Source of the DNA: Ignavibacteriota bacterium
GTDB lineage: Bacteria > Bacteroidota > Ignavibacteria > UBA10030 > UBA6906
NCBI GenBank assembly: GCA_963801355.1
Contig: CAWDEM010000008.1
Location: 2,176,001 to 2,240,000, forward strand
Direction: 5' to 3'
Length of the DNA stretch: 64,000 nt
The position numbers and the translations under genes were made by a program. Below the pieces are notes generated by a model, which was not told where the DNA came from, ran no database searches, and saw only the letters and a program-made list of their open reading frames with translations. This document shows positions 455 through 38,341 of this stretch, piece after piece. The stretch's first letter is position 1. The number at the start of each line of letters is the position of its first letter.

Positions 455-823
455 CTAGCGAACTAGTAGAAGCTTCTTCGTTTCCACGTGTGTCCATGCT
501 CCGCTCTTGGAGTCTCGCCCGACGGCGGAGTCCAGAGGGCGGACTTGCAGCCGGTAGAAGTAGACGCCGCTCGACAGGCCGCTCCCCTCGAACTTGACAC
601 ACCTGGTTCGTCGAGGATCTTTGCGCTGGTAACAGCATTGTCGGCAATGCTCGCGGGTGTACAGGCGGAACGTCACGTTGTAGTTCCCATCAGGCACTAC
701 GGTGGAGCCGCTGACAAGCGTCCCTTGGTAGCTCAGGATCCTTGGCATTTGTGCAGTTGCTTTCGAGAGAATGACAATTACCAGGAAAGCCGCGGCGAGA
801 AGAGTAGCAAGAGCGGGTTTCAT
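455..823 (-). pseudogene. Internally deleted T9SS-sorted protein (signal peptide + YQG N-terminus fused to a CTD tail)
   Basis: Signal peptide and AQMPRILSYQG start; ends KFEGSGLSSGVYFYRLQ...KKLLLVR but lacks QNYPNPFN; out-of-frame IADNAVTSAKILDEPGV fragment at 598-660. Confidence 0.7.
500..544. repeat. 45-nt palindromic in-frame insertion in a T9SS CTD, copy 1
   Basis: Encodes VRPLDSAVGRDSKSG; 44/45 identical to 17876-17920; imperfect hairpin. Confidence 0.85.
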
Positions 824-927
824 ACTCTGCCTCCACGTTGTGGTGCAAGAAGATTCACAAAAAAAAACTCTTCATCCTTCCGGACAAAGAGGTCTCTTCA
901 CATTTCCTTCCCCACAAACTTGCGCAA

Positions 928-959
928 CGTCAGGTGCAGCCGCTGGTTAGGTTGCCGCC
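928..959 (-). mobile_element. Truncated attC (R'' and L'' only)
   Basis: Minus strand ACCTAAC-CAGCG-GCTGCACC contains the gene's TAA; L'' is identical to that of the attC at 2472-2631; no right half found. Confidence 0.7.
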
Positions 960-1564
960 TTTGCTGCCTCCTGCGGAAATCCCTTGAACCTCCCAATGAC
1001 TACGATAATGGCATATATGGAAAATGCAATTGAGAGTGCTAGGAAGGTCCATGTAGCGAAATCGCCTACAGTGAGCGCAATGTGAAATAGATCGCCTCTA
1101 AAGCCTGTAGCAAATCCAATGGTTTCACATACTAAGTCAAAAGTAGGTCTCAAACACAGCAACATGAAGAGAAATCCAATGAGAAAAGCGTTATGAGAGA
1201 GTTTCCGTTGAAGAACGTAAACGCCAACTGCAATGCTCAAAAGATCGAAAAAGTAAGGCGAAATAGTCATGATCAACTGGCTCCATTCGTTGATGAAGCC
1301 CTCTGATTTGATCCACGCCCCACCAGTCTCTCCAGCCCAAAACCTAGGAATGAGTTTGACTTCGACAATCTCAGCACCAACAAGATATGCGCCAAGCAGA
1401 TGGCTCAATTCATGTATAGGCGCGTAGACGAAATACCACAGTATTGGAATGGTAGACATGCACGCCACCATCGTTTGTTGTTTCCAAGTTCCCCTTAGGT
1501 AGAGCACAAGAAGGGGAGCAACGACGGTGAAGAGTATTTCGAAAGTGATCAGTAGATGGTTCAT
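947..1564 (-). CDS. Cassette-borne membrane protein with HExxH motif (M50-like putative zinc metallopeptidase)
   Basis: Several hydrophobic helices; PIHELSH motif; visibly AT-richer than the host. Confidence 0.65.
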   Translation of the reverse strand: MNHLLITFEILFTVVAPLLVLYLRGTWKQQTMVACMSTIPILWYFVYAPIHELSHLLGAYLVGAEIVEVKLIPRFWAGETGGAWIKSEGFINEWSQLIMTISPYFFDLLSIAVGVYVLQRKLSHNAFLIGFLFMLLCLRPTFDLVCETIGFATGFRGDLFHIALTVGDFATWTFLALSIAFSIYAIIVVIGRFKGFPQEAAKAAT

Positions 1565-1577
1565 GAAAATGGCGGCA

Positions 1578-1637
1578 ACCTAACGCCCGCATTAAGCCGC
1601 GCCGCAAAGCGGCGTCGGCTTCAATGATTTGTTAGGC
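1578..1637 (-). mobile_element. attC site (60 bp)
   Basis: Minus strand GCCTAAC AAATC ATTGAAGC CGACGCCGC TTT GCGGCGCG GCTTAAT GCGGGC GTTAGGT: R''/L''/L'/R' with an extrahelical base. Confidence 0.9.
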
Positions 1638-1683
1638 ATGATTGGATTTCCCCCACTTTCTGAGTCGCCCGGTAATCCCCTCA

Positions 1684-2430
1684 TCACCGCGGCATCAGCG
1701 CGAACACACCCCAGCCCAGGTATTTACGCGTGTAAGCAGCGTAGCGCTCTGGTTCCGAGGTCAGTTTGGCTCGAACATCTTTCGCGAGCTCGTCCTCGGG
1801 ATTGGCTTCAAGCCATCGGCGCATGGTGAGCCATTTGGCCGCCTCGTATCTGTCAAAGCCGTCCTGGTCAGCCAGAACCATTTCAACGACATCGTAGCCA
1901 AGATGGTCGAAAGACGCGAGAAGTTCTGGAAGCATGAGAAAGTCGGAGATCGAGTTGGCAAGACACCCCTTGGCAACATCTTCCGTCGGCGGTAACTGCC
2001 GCCAGTAGGGCTCGCCGATGAGGATGATCCCTCCGGTGCGCAGGCTTCGCGCCAGGAGCTCGATAGTGCCGACGACTCCCCCGGCGATCCAAGTGGCACC
2101 GACACAGGCTGCCACACTGACCTTCTCGTCAGAGACATAGCCGGCAGCATCGCCATGGATGAACTTGACTTGATCGGCGACGCCGAGTTCTTCAGCACGG
2201 AGTTTCGCTTGCTCGGTGAACAACTGGCTCATGTCGATGCCGATGCCGATGACGCCGTGATCGCGTGCCCAGGTGCACAGCATCTCCCCCGAACCGCTGC
2301 CGAGGTCGAGCACTCGGGCCCCCGATTCCAGACGCAGCGCCGCGCCGAGTGTGGCGAGCTTTTCGGGTGTGATCGGGTTGTGGATGCGGTGAGCACTCTC
2401 AGTGATATTGAATATCCGTGGGATGTCCAC
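1684..2430 (-). CDS. Class I SAM-dependent methyltransferase (YjhP-like), cassette-borne
   Basis: VLDLGSGSGE motif I; FIHGDA; GGIILIGEPYW. Confidence 0.9.
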   Translation of the reverse strand: MDIPRIFNITESAHRIHNPITPEKLATLGAALRLESGARVLDLGSGSGEMLCTWARDHGVIGIGIDMSQLFTEQAKLRAEELGVADQVKFIHGDAAGYVSDEKVSVAACVGATWIAGGVVGTIELLARSLRTGGIILIGEPYWRQLPPTEDVAKGCLANSISDFLMLPELLASFDHLGYDVVEMVLADQDGFDRYEAAKWLTMRRWLEANPEDELAKDVRAKLTSEPERYAAYTRKYLGWGVFALMPR

Positions 2431-2471
2431 TGTGGAAACTTTCCTTACGGGTGTGAATAGATTCGGTCACT

Positions 2472-2631
2472 GCCTAACTGCGGCTCACCCGCGGCAACGA
2501 GACCGCTTGGGTTTCACTGCCGGAAACGAACCAAACCAAAACTATTTCAAATGACGACCATCTTTAACTCTGCTTCACACCTGCCAACCACCACCGCCGG
2601 CAATTCCGTCGGGTGCAGCCGCTTGTTAGGC
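2472..2631 (-). mobile_element. attC site (160 bp)
   Basis: Minus strand R'' GCCTAAC (contains the upstream gene's TAA), L'' GCTGCACC, long central loop, L' GGTGAGC, R' GTTAGGC. Confidence 0.88.
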
Positions 2632-3288
2632 GTCATTGTGCCCTTGGCGCCGGAGTACAACATGGGTGGCTTTCTCCGACGCAACGAACTGAACGCATTC
2701 GTATCCTAGAGCGCGCACGTCAATCCCCTCGAACAGTCGCTCTCCCCCGCCCAGCAGGACCGGCGAGATAGCGACGTGCAGCTTATCTATGAGACCCGTA
2801 CGAAGATATTGCTGGATAGTGTTAGGTCCGCCGCCAATGCGCACATCCATTCCGTTGGCTGCGTCGCGCGCCCGGTCAAGCGCCTCGTGAATACCACCGG
2901 TGACGAAGTAGAATGTCGTCCCGCCTTCCATCTGGATGGGCGGGCGCGCGTGATGAGTCAAGATGAAAGTTGGAACGTGATAAGGTGGGTTGTCCCCCCA
3001 CCAGCCTTTCCAGTTCATGTCGGGCCAGGAACCGCGAATCGGTCCGAACATGTTTCTTCCGAGAATCCAGGCGCCAATATTCTTGAAGCCCCGCGCAGCG
3101 AAGTCGTCATCGATCCCCGTTGTGCCACCGTCGGCGCCAAATAGGGTCCGTTGGATCGTGCGTGTCGGGACTAACCACTGGTGCAAATCTGTACCGCCCA
3201 CGCCGAGCGGATTCCTGATGTCCTGATTCGGACCAGCTCCGTATCCGTCAAGCGAGATGGTAAAGCCCTCAACTCGGACGCGTGTCAT
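2626..3288 (-). CDS. Dihydrofolate reductase/RibD C-terminal family protein, cassette-borne
   Basis: ISLDGY, ILGRNMF, VRIGGG and PVLLGGGERLF motifs; start moved to MTRVRV. Confidence 0.85.
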   Translation of the reverse strand: MTRVRVEGFTISLDGYGAGPNQDIRNPLGVGGTDLHQWLVPTRTIQRTLFGADGGTTGIDDDFAARGFKNIGAWILGRNMFGPIRGSWPDMNWKGWWGDNPPYHVPTFILTHHARPPIQMEGGTTFYFVTGGIHEALDRARDAANGMDVRIGGGPNTIQQYLRTGLIDKLHVAISPVLLGGGERLFEGIDVRALGYECVQFVASEKATHVVLRRQGHNDA

Positions 3289-3318
3289 TGTCACTATGAT
3301 TGCACCCTGAAGATCCAA

Positions 3319-3347
3319 ACGCATTCGTCTGCTGTTCACCCGCAGCA
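3319..3347 (-). mobile_element. Degenerate attC right half
   Basis: GCGGGTGAACAGCAG matches GCGGGTGAGCCGCAG of the 160-bp attC at 13/15 positions; R' decayed to GAATGCG. Confidence 0.5.
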
Positions 3348-3436
3348 GTTTGTGCTCCTACTATACAAACGTTCGGCTGGCCCAGAGCCCCCTACGCTTC
3401 GGGAACAAACGGCGACGGCAGTATAGGCAGCCCACA

Positions 3437-3508
3437 TCACACACTACCCCGACTCCTGTTGTTGTTCTGAAACTCCTCCACTTCGTTCATTTCTTTCAGG
3501 ACCTTCAT
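3437..3508 (-). pseudogene. Remnant of unknown small-ORF family, copy 1
   Basis: MKVLKEMNEVEEFQNNNRSRGSV* is colinear with 12545-12616 and 13467-13538. Confidence 0.6.
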
Positions 3509-3760
3509 TTTGACCGGACCCCAGTGTTGATGCCAATGTTGAGTCTTTTCCGCTTCTCCCAGGCATAGACACCCTGACGCAGGGAGTTTGTTTCCGATGT
3601 TGATGGTCGCCAAGCTGGTAATTGAAAAGCCTCTCCCATCCTTCCGGACAGAAGAGGCTTCAGCTCTTTCCCCGGCACGTCTCTCCCCAAGGACGTTCTA
3701 TGAGGAGAAGTTAGCACGATGAATTGGCATAATCAAGGCAAATATTTGGTGAGTATCCCC

Positions 3761-3793
3761 AAAAGGGCCCGGTGATGAATGCCGAACCCTTTT
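3761..3793 (-). terminator. Intrinsic terminator after the T9SS gene
   Basis: Minus strand AAAAGGGTTCGG-loop-CCGGGCCCTTTT; near-identical copy at 13592-13623. Confidence 0.7.
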
Positions 3794-3814
3794 GTTTACC
3801 TCATCCACCAGAAC

Positions 3815-6800
3815 TCATCTCACGAGCAACAACTTGCGCGTCTCCACGAACGATCCCGCTTGCAGCCTGTAGAAGTACACGCCGCTTGCGAGTCCAGATG
3901 CGTCGAACTTGATCTCGTGATACCCCGCTTCCCTTCTTTCATTCACCAGCCCGAGTACCTCACGACCGAGCATATCGAAGACGCTCAATCTCACCTCCGA
4001 GGACTTCGGCAATTCGTACTTGATGGTCGTGCTTGGGTTGAAGGGGTTGGGGTAGTTCTGTTCAAGACAAAATGAAAGGGGGAGCACTACCTCGTTGTCC
4101 GCGGCGGTTGTCGCTGAGAAATATTGAATATCGAGAGTGTCAATAGTGGAATCGGCGAGCGTATAGCTTTGCCGGGATTTCATGTTCACATTCACAGTCC
4201 TTCCTGCAGTCCGATCCTTCAACATCATTGTTCCTGGTGGGAGTCCGATCGAATCCCATTCCAATGTTATCGGATACCCGCAGGAAGCGGGGTGGAACGA
4301 GAAAGTCCACAGAATCGAGCTAAGTGTGTCGCTCCGTATGTCCGTGAGCGATGTCATTCCGGATTGAGACGGCATTATGAATCGACGGTCAAGACTGACT
4401 GTTGAGAGACGTGGCGGAAGGGGATACTCATTGAAGGTCGAGTCAAAACCATCTGTGGCACTTGGCGCCTGTCCGAAAATGAGCCATCCGTTTGAACCGG
4501 ATGGGTCTTCCAGCGTCAGCATGGCCGACCAGGTCGGTTTCGGGACGGTCGTTCGCAGGATGAAACCGTTGTCGCCGACGATCGTGCCAATCTCCCGGCC
4601 CACAAAACTGACGTCACGCAGCGACCATGTCGTCCCACTTCCCTGCCGACGCCATGTGAGTCCTGCATCGGATGTCCTCAGAATCAAGCCGTCAGTTCCC
4701 ACCGCACAGGCCCGCAGTGAGTCGAGGCACCAGACTCCCGACAAGCTGTTGCTGAAGCCCGTGGCAATCCTGGTCCATGTCGTGCCTGCGTCAGTTGTCC
4801 GCAAAATCACTCCACCGTCACCCACTGCGACTCCAGTGGTGTAATTGCCAAATGAGACACTCCTCAAAGCGGAGTAATCATCAGAGGTCCCCTGAGGGGA
4901 CCAGCTGAGGCCCGAATCGGTCGTATAGAGTATCGTCTCTCCACCGCCAACGACCCATCCACATCCATTTTCTGCAAAGGTCACATCAAAAAGTGTCGCT
5001 GCCACTCCACTGGACACGGGAGTCCAGCTTAGAGCAGCATTCGTTGTCCGGAGGATCCTTCCCGAGCTGCCTACGATGATACCCACGGTTGATGGTGCAA
5101 AATGGACGCCGTAGAAATTGGTGGACATAGGGTCAGTCGTTTGGTCCCATGTCGCGCCGGCGTCGGCTGTTCGCAAAACAATCCCCTCATCCCCCACAAC
5201 GCAGGCCTTGCTCGGGTCCAAGAAAGAGGCCGCATTGAACCCCTGGTAGGTGCTGAGAGTTCCTTGTGCCCAGACCGCGCCTCCATTCGTTGTCGTGAGA
5301 ATGATACCTGGTGACCCCGCGATGATGCCCTGTCGAGGGTTGGGAAGAGAGGTGCTCACAAGAGTCGTGGTGATATTGCTGTTTTGAATCTCCCATCCGT
5401 CGGGTGGCATAGGCGTTCTGAATTGAAAAGCCGAACCGTAGGTGGTCCCGCCCTGACTCACCGCCTTCACGCGCACATGATAGGTCGTGTCGGAGATCAA
5501 ATCGGCTAGCACGACACTCTTCACCGAGAACGTCCCAGTGAGTGCGGCTACTGAATTGGGGATGGCCGGGACGGATTTGCCGAAACTTGAGTCTGTGCCG
5601 TATTCGAAACTGACGAAGGTCTTCGCTCCTCGTGGTTCTACATACCCGAAGAACTGAATTGCATTGTAGAGATAGGAATTCACCCACACAGACGATACTA
5701 CGGGGGGAGGAGGTACGAACCTCCTCAGCGTGATGGAATAATCTCCGGTCGCTGCAAGCATCTGGCTCGACCTTCTCCCTGAATCAATGCCCCCATCCTC
5801 CAGTCGAGCTGCGGCACGAATCGGAGGTTCAGAATTCGACACTGCGTCTTTGTTGCCTCGGCCGACCGTGGCGTTTGGAAAGTTGCCAGAGGAGCCGGAG
5901 GAAGAATAACGCAAAAAGTAGAGTCCGGATGCTGGAATCATGTGAACGAGATGTTGCGAGTAAGGAGGACCGGCATCAGTGTATCCATGTGCAAGGATCC
6001 TTCCTGCGCTGTCGAAGAGAACAACCGTTGCGTAGAACTGGCCATTAGTCCTCTCGCCTGCCAGTATCTCAACGGTGTCGCCGGCCGACGCTGCAAAGAA
6101 GAAGTAGTCTACGTCATTTGGGGGACTGATCGTGCCGTACACCGTGTCGCCATAAACAATACTGTTCGCCACAGAAGCCGAGTTGTTGGGCTCAGCCTCC
6201 GTAGAGGGCCCTACTACGGCGATGGCAAACGTGGTATCGCTGAGGTCGACGAACGACGCACTGTCGACAGATGCGATACGCACTTTGCAGGTCAGTGACG
6301 GCGAGTTCGGCACAATCAACGCCTTCGATGAGCCACCGGCCGGAACAACTCCCAAAGATGACCATGTCGCACCACTATCGACTGTCAGCCAGAGTTCCAC
6401 ATCGCCGATCGCCCATGCACCCCAGCGAATAGTCTTCGTTGAGCCGACTTTCCATACCTCCTTGCCGTTGGGGGATTGAAGATGGACGTAGGGCTTCCTG
6501 AGAATCGTGCCACCGAGCCCGACAAGGACAGGGGATGGGAGGTTCTTGAGAGCCACCGTGGTCAAGTCGTTGAATGTGCCAGTCTCCTCCCGATTCCATG
6601 TCACGCCGCCGTCCGTGGTGATGTAGAGACGCCCGTGGTAACCGCCGATCCAGCCATTCATAGAGTCTGCAAATGCCAGAGTTTGCATCGGCCATTTGTC
6701 TTCCCCCGTGGGATGAGGCGTCCATGATGCGCCGCCATCGGTGGTTCGAGCAACTACGCCAAAGCTGGGCAAAGCCCATCCGTACTTTGTTCCATAGAAG

Positions 6801-12544: not shown

Positions 12545-12742
12545 TTACACTGCCCCCTTGCTTCACACATCGTCCTGGAACTCCTGGAGCTCGTTCATGT
12601 CCTTCAGGATCGTCATCTCCTGATTCCCTCCCGACACCGGCAACCCTTCGGGAGCAGTATCCTTGTTCAGGGACTCCAGCAGTCTGTTCCTGTGCCTCGA
12701 ATCGTTCAACTTTGCCAGTATTCTCTTCGCTTTCGCGCTCAT
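12545..12742 (-). pseudogene. Unknown small-ORF family, copy 2 (59 aa, probable W-to-stop near the end)
   Basis: MSAKAKRILAKLNDSRHRNRLLESLNKDTAPEGLPVSGGNQEMTILKDMNELQEFQDDV*SKGAV*. Confidence 0.55.
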
Positions 12743-12821
12743 GGGGTGGTAGGAGTGGGTTTTAGAACATCAGACGCATATATGGATTGACGCGCGACAG
12801 AAGTACTGCAATGCCAATCGG

Positions 12822-12850
12822 TTGAATCTCTCTTTGCTGATATCTATATT
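12822..12850 (+). promoter_or_regulatory. sigma70-like promoter
   Basis: TTGAAT-17 nt-TATATT upstream of the plus-strand lipoprotein remnant. Confidence 0.4.
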
Positions 12851-16832: not shown

Positions 16833-17198
16833 TCACGGCAACCGGATTTCAACCGGCTTGGATAAAGCAATGAATGCAACAATAATGCCAACGCCCAACA
16901 CGGCTGTTATGACAGTCTTGGTTATATCAAGTTCAATAATGACGACCTCTTTGATTTGTTCGTCTTGAACTATCCCATCGAAGTCCCACTCAGTCCTGAA
17001 CTCCCTATTGCGGATTGTTCCGATGACATGATACCCATTCGCGATTCTCTCATAGGTACGAGAAACAATGACTCTTCCATCGTTGAGTCGAAAGGTGACT
17101 TCAGCTGCAACTGGTGGACTATCTTTCGTTAGCGGTGTATTGGTGTAGCAACCAGTTACAAGGATGGCAAAAGACAGACAAACACAAATAAGTTTCAT
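16833..17198 (-). CDS. Hypothetical lipoprotein with C-terminal TM helix
   Basis: Lipobox LVTGC; paralog of the adjacent gene. Confidence 0.75.
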   Translation of the reverse strand: MKLICVCLSFAILVTGCYTNTPLTKDSPPVAAEVTFRLNDGRVIVSRTYERIANGYHVIGTIRNREFRTEWDFDGIVQDEQIKEVVIIELDITKTVITAVLGVGIIVAFIALSKPVEIRLP

Positions 17199-17830: not shown

Positions 17831-20638
17831 TTACTTCACAAGTAAGAGTTTCTTCGTCTCCATGTATGTTCCTGCTCCGCTCTTGGAGTCTCGCCCGACG
17901 GCGGAGTCCAGAGGGCGGATTTGCATCCGGCACAGATACACGCCGCTCGCCAGGTTGCTCCCATCGAACTGCACTTCATGGTATCCTGCATCTACTTCCC
18001 CTTGCACGAGCTGCGCCACCTGCTGGCTAAGCGTGTTGAAGACCGCCAGAGTCACGTGTGATCGTTGCGGTAGTCCATAGCGGATCGTAGTCAAAGGGTT
18101 GAAGGGATTGGGATAGTTTTGCCGGAGAGCGTATTCCGCGCACAGTTCATTCACCGCGCCATCCCGAACGTCGGAACCTGTCTCCACTCTGAAAGCCGGG
18201 TCGTACCATCCGCTCGCGTCCGTAAGCATCGTGGAGTATCGAGCGGAAGACGCATAGGCAGCGACCGAGTAGTAATAGTTCCCGTGCGCGGCTGGAGCAG
18301 TGCAGTTGAAGATGACAGTATCGGTTGTGCCAGCAGCGAAACCCTGTACACTTGTAGTCAGGTGCGCGTCATACGGAGAGGCCTGGTCTCTGTCAAAATA
18401 CAGACCTCCATGTGCTGACACAGCCAAAGCTCCCGGATAGTCGGGGTTCTTCATCTGAAGCTCAACCCGCAGCGCTGTCCCCGGAGCAACGGGGCTCTTT
18501 CCCCCGGGCGAGAGCTCCTCGTTCGTGCTATTGAGGAACACATGGACAGCAGGCATGTACGGCGAATTGTGGATGAACGATTCAGTCGTTACCCGGCCGC
18601 CAATCACACCTATCCCTGATTTCTCCCCCCAGAATTGTTCACCCCAGGGTCTCGAAGGATCGGTCACATAGACCCTGTAGAAGTAATCACTCCCTACCGG
18701 TATGTCTGCAAATGTGACAACACCACTCGCATTCGTCGGACCTTCAGCCACCTGAGCGTTGCTGTTGTTGTGCAACACTACCCTGGCAAGCGCGCCGGGG
18801 CTCCCCCAATTCTCAGCGTTAGTCACAGTGATTGCGAGGCTGCCAACAAAGGTCGTTAATTCCGACAAGGGCCGTCGCCAGACGCCGTCCTTGCCTGTCC
18901 CTGCGAACAAGTACTCCCCACGCACGGCCAGAGAGCGAATCCATTTGTTGGGGCTGGTGCACGTCAGACCTTCCTCAGCTGCGACCCAGGTTGTTCCATT
19001 GTTGGTTGAAACGGCAAACTTATCAGCGGTGCCAGCGAAGATAGTGCTCCCGCTGGCGGCAAAGGCCAGGACCCATCTGCCTTCTATCCCGGTATTTGCC
19101 GTTGACCACGTTGTGCCATTGTCGGTCGAACGAAAGAGGGCGGTCGGTGTTCCCACAAGTAGGTTCGTGCCGTAGACGCCGAGGGCCTCAACACCCACAT
19201 CTGATATTCCCGCATTGGCGGGAGTCCAGTTCGCGCCGTGATCAGTCGATCGGTAGACTCCCCTGCCGCCTGTACCGGCGAAGAGATATGTATCATTGGC
19301 AGCGAGAGCATTGATAGAAGCATCGGGCAGACCCGAGCTGGCCAAAACCCAAGTCGCACCACGATCTGTTGTACGAAAGACTCCACCAAAGGTGCCTACA
19401 AAGACGTCTGTTCCATCGGTAAGGAGCGACGTTACCAGGTAGTTCGTGAGGCCGGCGTTGACACTTCTCCAACTCGCCCCATGATTTATAGAGAGGTAGA
19501 CGCCTCCCTCCCATGCACCGGCGAAGAGATCGTCACCGCTGCCAGCCAGGCACTCCACGACAGTCCATAACATGCCCTCGTTGACAGGTGTCCACGTGTT
19601 GCCATTGTCAGTCGACCGTGCAATACCGTTGCCGTCCGCGCTGGCAAACAGATCATTGCCCAGAGCTGTCAGAGCCGAGATATATGAATGTGTGATCCCT
19701 GAATCGACCTCAGTCCAAGTGGCGCCTTTGTCTGAAGAACGGAAGATTCCACCGGCCGTCCCTGCAAAAATGTACGCAGCATTGCATGTAACGGCCCATG
19801 CAAAATGGCCCGCCGGTCCGCACGGCGTCCAGTTCGCCCCGTTGTCGGTGGTCCGAAAGACTCCCCCTCCGAATGTTCCTGCCAGCAGGGATGTGCTATC
19901 AGAGGCGAACGTGACGACATAGTGATTGCGCAGACCTGAAGTGACTGGCGTCCACGTAGCGACGCTGTCTGTTGAGCGATACACACCATGGCCGTACCGG
20001 GAACCCGCAAACAGGTCGTCTCCCCTAGTGGCGAGCGCCCAGACACTGGCCAAGGGCAGACCGGTGTTGAATGAGGCCCAGCTGGCGCCACGATTGGTGG
20101 AACGAAAAACGCCGCCTTCGGTCCCGGCGAAGAGGCTGCTCCCACGTGCAACCAGGGCACGCACAAATGTGTTCGTCAATCCGGAATTGACGGGAGTCCA
20201 GTCGGTACCGTTGTTCGTTGAAAGAAAGACACCGTCCCGAGTGCCCGCATACAGATTCGTTCCGATACGGGCAAACGCAAAGACATATGGGTCCTTCGGG
20301 AACCCCGCATTGATAGCTGTCCAGTGCACCCCAAGGTCTGTCGTAAGAAAAGCACCCCCCTCCTCGGTGCCTGCAAAGAGATTCGTTCCATCAAACAAAA
20401 GCGCCCACAGGTACAGGTTGGTCAGCCCTGAGTTGACTTGACTCCAGTGCATCCCGTTGTCGGTCGAATGGTAGATGCCGGCACCGCGTATCCCGGCAAA
20501 GATATGCGAACCGCTGGTGGCAAGCGCCATGGTGCTGCCGCCATACGGTCCGTTGGTCTGGACCCACTGCGCATAGCTGACATACCTTCCCAGCAAAACG
20601 ATCAAACACACGAGAACGACTCGGCAAGGAGTAGCCAT
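17831..20638 (-). CDS. T9SS-sorted BNR/Asp-box beta-propeller repeat protein
   Basis: AQWVQTNGPYGG; many LFAGT..GVFRSTDNGxxW repeats; GVWRRPLSE; RQNYPNPFNP CTD. Confidence 0.9.
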   Translation of the reverse strand: MATPCRVVLVCLIVLLGRYVSYAQWVQTNGPYGGSTMALATSGSHIFAGIRGAGIYHSTDNGMHWSQVNSGLTNLYLWALLFDGTNLFAGTEEGGAFLTTDLGVHWTAINAGFPKDPYVFAFARIGTNLYAGTRDGVFLSTNNGTDWTPVNSGLTNTFVRALVARGSSLFAGTEGGVFRSTNRGASWASFNTGLPLASVWALATRGDDLFAGSRYGHGVYRSTDSVATWTPVTSGLRNHYVVTFASDSTSLLAGTFGGGVFRTTDNGANWTPCGPAGHFAWAVTCNAAYIFAGTAGGIFRSSDKGATWTEVDSGITHSYISALTALGNDLFASADGNGIARSTDNGNTWTPVNEGMLWTVVECLAGSGDDLFAGAWEGGVYLSINHGASWRSVNAGLTNYLVTSLLTDGTDVFVGTFGGVFRTTDRGATWVLASSGLPDASINALAANDTYLFAGTGGRGVYRSTDHGANWTPANAGISDVGVEALGVYGTNLLVGTPTALFRSTDNGTTWSTANTGIEGRWVLAFAASGSTIFAGTADKFAVSTNNGTTWVAAEEGLTCTSPNKWIRSLAVRGEYLFAGTGKDGVWRRPLSELTTFVGSLAITVTNAENWGSPGALARVVLHNNSNAQVAEGPTNASGVVTFADIPVGSDYFYRVYVTDPSRPWGEQFWGEKSGIGVIGGRVTTESFIHNSPYMPAVHVFLNSTNEELSPGGKSPVAPGTALRVELQMKNPDYPGALAVSAHGGLYFDRDQASPYDAHLTTSVQGFAAGTTDTVIFNCTAPAAHGNYYYSVAAYASSARYSTMLTDASGWYDPAFRVETGSDVRDGAVNELCAEYALRQNYPNPFNPLTTIRYGLPQRSHVTLAVFNTLSQQVAQLVQGEVDAGYHEVQFDGSNLASGVYLCRMQIRPLDSAVGRDSKSGAGTYMETKKLLLVK
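17876..17920. repeat. 45-nt palindromic in-frame insertion in a T9SS CTD, copy 2
   Basis: Encodes IRPLDSAVGRDSKSG between RMQ and AGTYMETKK. Confidence 0.85.
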
Positions 20639-21443: not shown

Positions 21444-21529
<86 letters not shown>

Positions 21530-37810: not shown

Positions 37811-38341
37811 TCAGTTCAAAAAGAGGTAGGGCTTCCAGCGCTCGTCCAACGAACCGACGACATGCCGGATAAACGTGACATGATTCGGACGCATGGGCTT
37901 CCGACGGAGCGGCATGTGCGCCTCTTCAGGAGTACGGTCGCCTTTCTTGTTGTTGCACACGACGCAGGCACACACCAGATTTTCCCACGTATCCTCGCCA
38001 CCCCGGGAAATCGGCACGACATGGTCCACCGTCAGCGGCAAATCAGACCGGCCGCAGAATTGACAGCGATGCGCATCCCGCCGGAGAATATTCTTGCGAG
38101 AAAGGATGATGCGTTTGTACGGAACCTTCACATACACAGACAATCGGACGATGCTCGGATAGGGTACCGCGAGGCTTACCGATCTAATCATCTGCCCGTT
38201 ATGCGCCTCGATCATTTCCGCTTTGCCAAGGAAGAGGAGAGCGATGGCCTTCCTTACGTTGACCACACTCATGGGCTCATAATTCTGGTTGAGTATGAGA
38301 ACCTTGGCGTTGAGGCGTCCGCAAACCCCTCTGGCATTCAG
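37811..38341 (-). CDS. HNH endonuclease (McrA-like); start uncertain
   Basis: VLILNQNYEP (upstream of the called ATG at 38272); CQFCG; TVDHVVP..GG..WENLV..C..CN. Confidence 0.85.
   Translation of the reverse strand: MNARGVCGRLNAKVLILNQNYEPMSVVNVRKAIALLFLGKAEMIEAHNGQMIRSVSLAVPYPSIVRLSVYVKVPYKRIILSRKNILRRDAHRCQFCGRSDLPLTVDHVVPISRGGEDTWENLVCACVVCNNKKGDRTPEEAHMPLRRKPMRPNHVTFIRHVVGSLDERWKPYLFLN

Follow-up and report, generated by a model that had tools for sequence, protein, structure and literature searches.

Gene content and layout of the locus

We analyzed a 64-kb window (the whole stretch of DNA examined here; contig CAWDEM010000008.1, positions 2,176,001 to 2,240,000) that carries a short array of integron gene cassettes near its left end. 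Read along the minus strand, the array consists of a gene for a RibD_C/dihydrofolate reductase (DHFR)-like protein, a 160-nt attC site (attC B), a gene for an S-adenosylmethionine (SAM)-dependent methyltransferase, a 60-nt attC site (attC D), a gene for a membrane protein with an HExxH motif, and a truncated attC site (attC C) (Table 1). The two complete sites, B and D, lie on the same strand 835 nt apart, and the methyltransferase gene sits in the only cassette between two complete sites.

A complete integron has intI, attI, and Pc next to its first cassette; attI has no general model. Neither an IntI homolog nor a Phage_integrase domain was found among the 64 open reading frames (ORFs) of the window that were scanned for Pfam domains, and the best tblastn match of IntI1 in the window had an E value of 2.6. 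No integrase is encoded in the 60 kb upstream of the array or in the 927 nt visible beyond its left end. A first-pass annotation, made from the letters of this DNA alone, had described integron cassettes with attC sites and no integrase in view, had placed the two complete sites at 2472-2631 and 1578-1637, and had assigned the three genes to the DHFR/RibD family, the methyltransferases, and an HExxH membrane protein; all of this is borne out by the analyses below.

Table 1. Features of the cassette array, in window coordinates and listed along the minus strand. A slash marks the predicted crossover point.
Feature	Coordinates	Strand	Evidence or remark
Claimed degenerate attC right half, undefined proximal border	3315..3347	minus	Unsupported
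Cassette 1 gene, RibD_C/dihydrofolate reductase-like, 220 aa	2626..3288	minus	Pfam RibD_C, E 1.1e-18
attC B, complete, 160 nt	2472..2631	minus	R1 55.6 bits, E 2e-14; nhmmer E 5.8e-11
Cassette 2 unit, 894 bp	1584..2477	minus	From TTAGGC after the attC B crossover G to the attC D crossover G
Cassette 2 gene, class I SAM-dependent methyltransferase, 248 aa, GTG start	1684..2430	minus	Pfam Methyltransf_31/25/11
attC D, complete, 60 nt, aadA/aadB type	1578..1637	minus	R1 35.9 bits, E 1.9e-8
Cassette 3 5' end, G/TTAGGTTGCCGCC	1568..1584	minus	Complementary over 16/17 nt (94%) to own 3' end at 946-962, GGCGGCAACCTAAC
Cassette 3 gene, HExxH (HELSH) multi-pass membrane protein, 205 aa	947..1564	minus	HELSH motif
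attC C, truncated	922..952 (left edge ~922)	minus	R'' ACCTAAC (952-946), then L'' and a few bases beyond; no L', no R'
Terminator-like hairpin with T run	868..891	minus	Just past the truncated attC; 14-nt core in common with the hairpin at 3627-3660

Two complete attC sites of different types

Both complete sites are recognized by a covariance model, R1, that was built from 28 representatives with less than 93% identity, all from outside the window, and run on the whole window with filters off. The two matches, at the scores given in Table 1, fall on the cassette strand; the reverse (plus) strand of attC B scores 23.1 bits, and the next best match in the 64 kb reaches only 10.6 bits (E of 0.9). 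A 6-kb class 1 integron from a Klebsiella plasmid (intI1, aadB, aac(6')-33, qacEdelta1, sul1) served as a positive control, in which R1 recovered the aadB attC at 24.6 bits and the aac(6')-33 attC at 34.7 bits, both on the correct strand, with the next match at an E value of 0.21. The first-pass annotation had let its reading hang on whether an attC covariance model would score at least one of the two sites; R1, a custom model, scores both. A plain regular-expression scan of the window for RYYYAAC...GTTRRRY pairs gave two additional candidates that we rejected: the pair at 12704-12827 folds no better than shuffled sequences (z of 0.07 and 0.26) and has no R1 score, and the pair at 16893-17088 likewise has none.

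The boxes of attC B are R'' at 2631-2625 (GCCTAAC), L'' at 2622-2610, L' at 2491-2480, and R' at 2478-2472 (GTTAGGC), with bulged bases at 2616 (inside L'') and 2609, while those of attC D are R'' at 1637-1631 (GCCTAAC) and R' at 1584-1578 (GTTAGGT). The gene-proximal RYYYAAC box and the distal GTTRRRY box are complementary in both, and site C has ACCTAAC alone. As single strands, both complete sites form a terminal box of 6 to 7 bp that is followed by a short internal loop and by a stem, one arm of which carries two single-base bulges; attC B shows the R box, a short spacer, the L box, and two 1-nt bulges (z of -3.0 and -2.5 against shuffles), and the fold of attC D stands out to the same degree (z of -3.2 and -3.1). 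The recombining bottom strand of attC B is the plus strand of the window. The bottom strands of B and D carry their bulges in the 3' arm: counted from the end, one is at position 16 and the other, a T, at position 23, and six pairs separate them. The geometry described for attC sites places the bulges at 16 and 23/24 with a six-pair stem between them, the first usually a G and the second a conserved T (Nivina et al., PMC5027507), and the bulge positions and the T at 23 in B and D therefore match it. The bottom-strand folding that the first-pass annotation had proposed as a check thus returns the two bulges in both sites (z of -2.5 to -3.2).

The 60-nt site is not exotic. In 3134 plasmid records, attC D is 84 to 89% identical to the attC sites behind aadA1, aadA7, aadA10, aadA16, and aadB, and it is of the aadA/aadB attC type known from class 1 integrons, whose length of 60 nt, R boxes, and bulge positions it shares; for aadB, the example site comes from a class 1 integron that also carries intI1. 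It differs from these sites in standing behind a methyltransferase gene instead of a resistance gene, in its location on a Bacteroidota/Ignavibacteria-like chromosome, and in its first bottom-strand bulge, which is C and not G. The long site has no relatives in the plasmid records, where a single 28-nt match (E of 0.1) is at chance level.

A family of related attC sites in other genomes

We searched 185,579 species genomes with a left-arm pattern of 21 specified bases, for which about 0.3 chance matches were estimated, and recovered 91 stretches in 86 loci from 24 genomes, the window's own genome not being among them. Most of these loci derive from two metagenome-assembled genomes (MAGs), with 58 from "Bacteroidota bacterium BIN5" and 6 from "Ignavibacteria bacterium BIN7"; the remaining 22 come from 22 other genomes, comprising four Vicinamibacterales, four Acidobacteriota, two Terriglobia, three Deltaproteobacteria, and one each of Desulfobacterales, Armatimonadota, Spirochaetales, Elusimicrobiota, "Proteobacteria," Zobellella, Halomonas, Oceanospirillaceae, and Perlucidibaca. 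The arm matches in BIN5 and BIN7 lie on one strand at a spacing of 0.5 to 1.8 kb. The proposal of a lineage-specific attC family in the first-pass annotation does not stand as worded, as the 21-base arm occurs in 24 other genomes from many phyla.

From these loci, 86 distinct complete sites could be extracted by pattern (65 from BIN5, 8 from BIN7, and 13 from others), most of them 128 to 132 nt long. The inner part of this 131-nt type is concentrated in BIN5, BIN7, and two Terriglobia MAGs, so that the idea of a lineage-specific long attC holds in part: its arms are common across phyla, and the inner part of the family has a narrow distribution. Site C has the arm of this family, and site B shares both arms and the bulges; within attC B, the 111 nt between the arms are its own, with only weak similarity to the family inside. 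The window also differs from BIN5 and BIN7 in its composition, with two complete sites of two types instead of tens of near-identical ones. The 65 distinct complete BIN5 sites (128 to 147 nt) are scattered over numerous short contigs and the ends of 170-kb and 24-kb contigs. They probably stem from one large cassette array at which the assembly broke, and the flanking sequence searched gave no IntI homolog. The two attC types of the window also occur together in a gammaproteobacterial array: on a Zobellella sp. chromosome (locus L001), a 60-nt attC at 959-1018 with 86% identity to attC D over 57 nt (R1, 24 bits) shares an array with a site that has the long-type arm.

Several features of the related loci bear on whether this family consists of attC sites. 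R1 detected further same-strand attC sites that had not been selected by the pattern in most of the 22 non-BIN loci. IntI homologs were detected by tblastn with IntI1 in 4 of the 86 loci; in L016 the match has 56% identity over 316 aa and lies about 1 kb from the attC, and those in L073, L078, and L013 are partial. Among 54 sites aligned to the model structure, 94.4% of the cells are paired and 19 of 26 pairs show double changes, compared with 27 to 43% pairing when the partners are slid by one to three columns. In a MAFFT alignment that was not fitted to the model, the only L-box position that the search pattern had left free also covaries (UA 16, CG 7, GC 3, UG 1, and AA 1 among 28 sites), and the bulged bases are kept in family sites whose stems have changed.

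Cassette boundaries and phase

A crossover between G and TT (G/TT) places the last six bases of each R' box in the next cassette. The related arrays follow this phase: among 44 distinct successive site pairs, the final base of R' is complementary to the opening base of R'' in the following site in 42 and to that in its own site in 29, and when only the 14 pairs that discriminate between the two are considered, 13 fit the next site, none its own site, and 1 neither. The junction from D to C in the window agrees, as the final T of R' in attC D fits the A of the ACCTAAC that follows the HExxH gene and not the G of its own site. The complementarity between the two ends of cassette 3 (Table 1) is, from its base pairing, the footprint of a former circular cassette that was opened at G/TT. 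The boundaries of cassette 2 were drawn by applying the G/TT rule (PMC5027507) to the R1-scored sites, and it starts with TTAGGC, six bases that are complementary to its own R'' (GCCTAAC).

Because of the R1 scores with their positive control, the identity of attC D to the aadA/aadB sites, the IntI genes near sites of the same family, the covariation, and the cassette phase, attC B and attC D are, as judged by sequence analysis, real attC sites.

A truncated attC at the distal border

Behind the HExxH gene, attC C shares 22 of 24 bases with the left arm of attC B, and the arm pattern matches twice in the window against 0.07 matches expected. A sequence profile of the family detects the site with an E value of 7.5e-8 and covers only profile positions 2 to 37, where the match breaks off. 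The first-pass annotation had called a left half here; a left part is confirmed, with borders at 952 and approximately 922. The same cassette end is found in a Terriglobia MAG (L085), where the last 330 nt of the HExxH cassette recur at 88% nucleotide identity (81% amino acid identity over 94 residues) and are followed by a complete 131-nt attC, a full member of the family (107.5 bits), and by another cassette. The similarity between the window and this copy ends at 922. We also considered a full but degenerate attC downstream of 952 and rejected it, as no L'/R' partner arm was found there and R1 gave only 3.7 bits. Because the profile match ends at position 37, a partner arm is missing, and the Terriglobia copy has a complete 131-nt attC, the distal attC reads as truly truncated, with its distal two thirds lost and the array broken at its distal end.

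Two side observations were made next to this border. The terminator-like hairpin just past the truncated attC and a second hairpin at 3627-3660 (minus strand) are alike at some 35 bases overall, including a shared core of 14 nt, TGTCCGGAAGGATG, bracketing the array as direct repeats 2764 nt apart; the 14-nt motif matches twice in the 64 kb against 0.04 expected. The pair may be a footprint of the arrival of the array or may belong to a local family of terminators. Adjoining the broken attC, at 455-823 (minus strand), lies an ORF of 122 aa with a signal-peptide-like start, no Pfam match, and an end that resembles the sorting tails of type IX secretion system (T9SS) substrates. Its end resembles the C terminus of the ORF at 17834-20638 (74% identity over 47 aa) and that of the 1921-aa protein encoded upstream of the array (78% over 18 aa), and the ORF looks like the internally deleted remnant of a gene for a secreted T9SS-tail protein.

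Left-arm-only (R''-L'') sites were also seen in other loci of the genome scan: L078 (300-531), L054 (from 2000), L015 (from 646), and L008 (from 2328). In L078 the left arm adjoins the final ~57 codons of a gene that resembles intI (70% identity to IntI1), in the Halomonas locus L054 it runs directly into other sequence, and the L008 site has a weak full-length R1 match (21 bits). It may be that arrays repeatedly end in such left-arm-only sites.

The proximal border

At the other end of the array, the first-pass annotation had placed a degenerate attC right half at 3319-3347 and had regarded its L-box sequence as shared with the long site and the left half. The sharing holds for the left half and fails for the right: only 16 of 19 bases match the L' of attC B, no better than other chance families in the same 4 kb, and the 8-mer GCGGGTGA of the claimed half occurs 6 times in the window with 3.6 occurrences expected. 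The sequence profile gave no match to it at an E value of 100 or less, and R1 found nothing in 3250-3820. The segment forms a small hairpin of its own, and a pattern for it matches once, though this pattern was written after the site had been seen and makes no fair test. Near 3440, a possible decayed left partner was rejected for want of support from the profile, the model, or the fold. Because the right half does not rise above chance, the proximal border of the array is undefined; the array is broken at its distal end, where the attC is truncated.

Cassette genes

The RibD_C protein has 86 to 87% amino acid identity across all 220 residues to ORFs on Ralstonia megaplasmids, and the full-length alignment to a 220-aa Ralstonia ORF fixes its start at the ATG at 3288. 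Its TAA stop (2628-2626) falls within R'' of attC B, just as the TAA stop of the HExxH gene (949-947) falls within R'' of attC C; both had been pointed out before. A RibD_C gene on the Ralstonia solanacearum megaplasmid (L088, 2973-3720) resembles a fossil single cassette, with GTTAGGC 22 nt ahead of its ATG, GCCTAAC overlapping its stop, and behind it a decayed 63-nt attC-like hairpin with GTCAGTG as R' (R1, 8.1 bits; E of 0.54). The nucleotide similarity between Ralstonia and the window stops right after GCCTAAC, so the gene has different attC sites in the two, a situation that bears on how genes gain their attC.

The methyltransferase has 84% amino acid identity over residues 1 to 248 to proteins encoded on Azospirillum replicons. 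No attC was found beside its homologs in the Azospirillum and Enterobacter replicons examined, and the methyltransferase gene is therefore not always a cassette. A defense system at the array was considered and set aside, as PADLOC returned only a generic methyltransferase-domain match to mad2.

The HExxH protein has no Pfam or NCBIfam match. All 23 aligned homologs (50 to 96% identity) retain the HELSH motif, and C35, D107, C146-E147, and D158 are likewise invariant. The family is common in metagenomes: 643 homologous clusters were found, some with 87 to 120 member sequences, and dozens of homologs have 85 to 96% identity, many of them on contigs about 1 kb long. Structure prediction gives a helical fold at a confidence (pLDDT) of 74.5. 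A structure search gave 0 PDB matches at an E value of 0.001 or less; the best matches were to the site-2 proteases SpoIVFB and MjS2P (E of 0.06 to 0.3; TM scores of 0.33 to 0.40), below significance, and this weak likeness may serve as a lead only.

Genomic context

The array is flanked by genes for T9SS-secreted proteins, its upstream neighbor being the gene for the 1921-aa protein, which has a T9SS tail, and such sorting tails were found among the window's proteins. The chorismate synthase of the window has 84% identity to metagenome proteins, 73% to a protein of a Bacteroidetes MAG, and 68% to a protein of an Ignavibacteria MAG; together with the T9SS tails, this makes the earlier description of the genome as Ignavibacteria-like plausible. 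The closest relatives of the cassette genes are found in Terriglobia, Azospirillum, and Ralstonia at 81 to 87% amino acid identity, compared with only 68 to 73% between the chorismate synthase and its named relatives. The GC content is ~44 to 47% in the HExxH cassette, 56 to 64% in the methyltransferase cassette, and 57 to 59% in the RibD_C cassette, with flanks at ~55%. Because their GC content differs from that of the flanks and their closest relatives (81 to 87%) belong to other phyla, the cassette genes appear to be of foreign origin.

No transposase or insertion sequence (IS) genes were found among the 64 scanned ORFs, and the small ORFs flanking the array match no Pfam family at an E value of 0.01 or less. 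In a search of the whole window against Rfam, the sole match was a tRNA at 21447-21529 (minus strand), with no attC-like family. A stand-alone ORF for an HNH endonuclease (153 aa; 37811-38272) lies between trpS and a gene for an HtrA-like protease. At the left edge, a minus-strand gene begins at position 12 and continues beyond the window, and a 96-aa open frame there matches neither a Pfam family nor IntI1.

Classification and origin of the array

IntegronFinder clusters attC sites within 4 kb by default. An attC site cluster that has no integron integrase (CALIN) is defined by at least two clustered attC sites, the default of IntegronFinder 2, and no integrase (Neron et al. 2022, PMC9024848). 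Because two complete attC sites are clustered here and the window holds no integrase, the element fits this definition, and because it sits on a contig of 3,025,578 bases in a chromosomal setting (aro genes, trpS, scpAB, and recO), this state is no artifact of a contig edge. We consider it probable that this short CALIN is a decayed fragment of a once larger array. In such a history, three unrelated genes would each have been captured as a promoterless cassette by an integron integrase, which would cut the folded bottom (plus) strand of attC where A meets C in AAC, equivalent to G/TT on the cassette strand; the array would then have decayed, leaving a proximal border (attI, intI, or an earlier attC) that is now unrecognizable and a last attC that would have lost its distal two thirds. 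Given an integrase in trans, the methyltransferase cassette could still leave as a circle. As the only cassette between two complete sites, this 894-bp unit (2477..1584) is predicted to be the only one that can be excised in trans, and the RibD_C and HExxH genes would be fixed in place.

CALINs have been proposed to be degraded integrons whose cassettes are perhaps still mobilized in trans, and intI pseudogenes were found near only 15 of 279 of them, with none recognizable for 95% (Cury et al. 2016, PMC4889954). The array described here resembles other CALINs in having at least two same-strand attC sites that each follow a single ORF, no integrase or intI pseudogene in view, and a small size; it differs in belonging to a host group for which they are rarely reported and in its visibly truncated terminal site.

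The strongest competing explanation is that an integrase encoded elsewhere or on a transient element placed the cassettes, singly or as a multicassette circle, into a GTT site of the genome (attC x attG). Small CALINs may originate in this manner, when an integrase inserts cassettes at genomic sites other than att sites (Loot et al., bioRxiv 10.1101/2022.09.11.507474), a process which that study demonstrated experimentally and which may account for the 1362 of 2961 CALINs with only two cassettes. The small size of the array, the two attC types within it, which fit a piecemeal arrival, the lack of an intI pseudogene or attI upstream, and the lack of transposase or IS genes among the scanned ORFs are all in keeping with this origin, and cassettes outside an integron platform with no IS nearby are what the insertions of single attC sites lacking an integrase (SALINs) at attG described by Loot et al. 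look like as well. The present array differs from those insertions in having several cassettes instead of one and in its truncated terminal attC, which insertion alone does not produce: the last attC is without its variable terminal structure, L', and R', so that a later deletion would be needed in any case, and no GTTRRRY junction is recognizable upstream of the RibD_C gene. Because insertion leaves the last attC whole up to the crossover G and site C is cut a third of the way in, we favor decay of an array over off-site insertion, which we regard as unlikely.

We give still less weight to a complete integron with its integrase just past the left end of the window, by way of an inversion or an unusual layout. 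Only 927 nt are visible beyond the truncated attC, and the minus-strand gene from position 12 leaves the window; against this, intI and attI normally lie upstream of the first cassette, where the 60 kb from 3347 onward are without an integrase, the broken distal attC, with a terminator and a decayed T9SS-tail gene behind it, gives the appearance of an array's end, and the 96-aa frame at the left edge resembles neither a Pfam family nor IntI1. Finally, chance palindromes, terminators, or elements like repetitive extragenic palindromes (REPs) would also appear as GC-rich imperfect hairpins in intergenic spacers, and two other box pairs do arise by chance in the window, but this explanation is refuted as far as sequence analysis reaches, with next to no likelihood remaining, by the R1 scores with their control, the 84 to 89% identity to class 1 attC sites, the IntI genes beside sites of the same family, the covariation, the strand asymmetry, the cassette phase (13 of 14), and the chance pairs themselves, which get no R1 score and of which the one that was folded did no better than shuffles.

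Some observations weigh against a decayed array of genuine attC sites, which nonetheless is the history that we prefer. Position 16 of the bottom strand is C, and not the usual G, in B, in D, and in the whole related family. Site B, at 160 nt, exceeds the range of 57 to 141 bp given for attC sites (PMC5027507), and its recombination by an integrase is a prediction. R1 is a custom model seeded from the motif of the window's own site, and the 54-site covariation alignment was fitted to the model structure, which favors that structure. At the proximal border, no attI, intI pseudogene, or convincing upstream attC remnant was found, and a former full integron at this locus is something that we infer. 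The array stands only 927 nt from the window's left end, and an integrase may lie just outside.

Implications

Taken alone, the element is one more small CALIN among the thousands that have been catalogued. It comes with a testable prediction, that only the 894-bp methyltransferase cassette can be excised. The related sites also point to a cassette array of large size, now in fragments, in a MAG of the Bacteroidota, for which few integrons have been described. Complete integrons are on record in Chlorobi and Ignavibacteriae, with one in Salinibacter, and thousands of CALINs are known (Neron et al., PMC9024848); the passages of that study concerned with Chlorobi and Ignavibacteriae name no CALINs in them.

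Sedentary chromosomal integrons have homogeneous attC families, such as the Vibrio cholerae repeats (VCRs) of Vibrio and the attC sites of Xanthomonas. The aadA/aadB-type site of the window is relevant to a question raised by Ghaly et al. (2021, PMC8352920), who described a "Xanthomonadales-like" attC clade in which 935 of 941 sites were from Xanthomonadales and whose Table 1 puts the attC sites of aadA1a, aadA7, and aadB in this clade. They found attC sites to group by habitat and not by phylogeny, and for this clade they had too few taxa outside the Xanthomonadales to separate taxonomy from ecology (PMC8352920). An aadA/aadB-type attC in a chromosome far from the Xanthomonadales is the kind of case that they wanted, although such hosts may already be listed in their work (PMC8352920). 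The near-identical cassettes and the exactly conserved 21-base arm across phyla support the notion that attC types follow habitat.

A broader possibility, which we offer tentatively and with more doubt than confidence, is that Bacteroidota/Ignavibacteria host large chromosomal integrons whose cassettes are traded with Acidobacteriota and Proteobacteria by way of a near-invariant attC arm, and that the same pool carries the aadA/aadB-type attC. If this is true, the Xanthomonadales-like attC clade would be an ecological rather than a taxonomic group, and soil and freshwater bacteria of the Fibrobacteres-Chlorobi-Bacteroidetes (FCB) group would belong to the reservoir that feeds class 1 integrons with cassettes.

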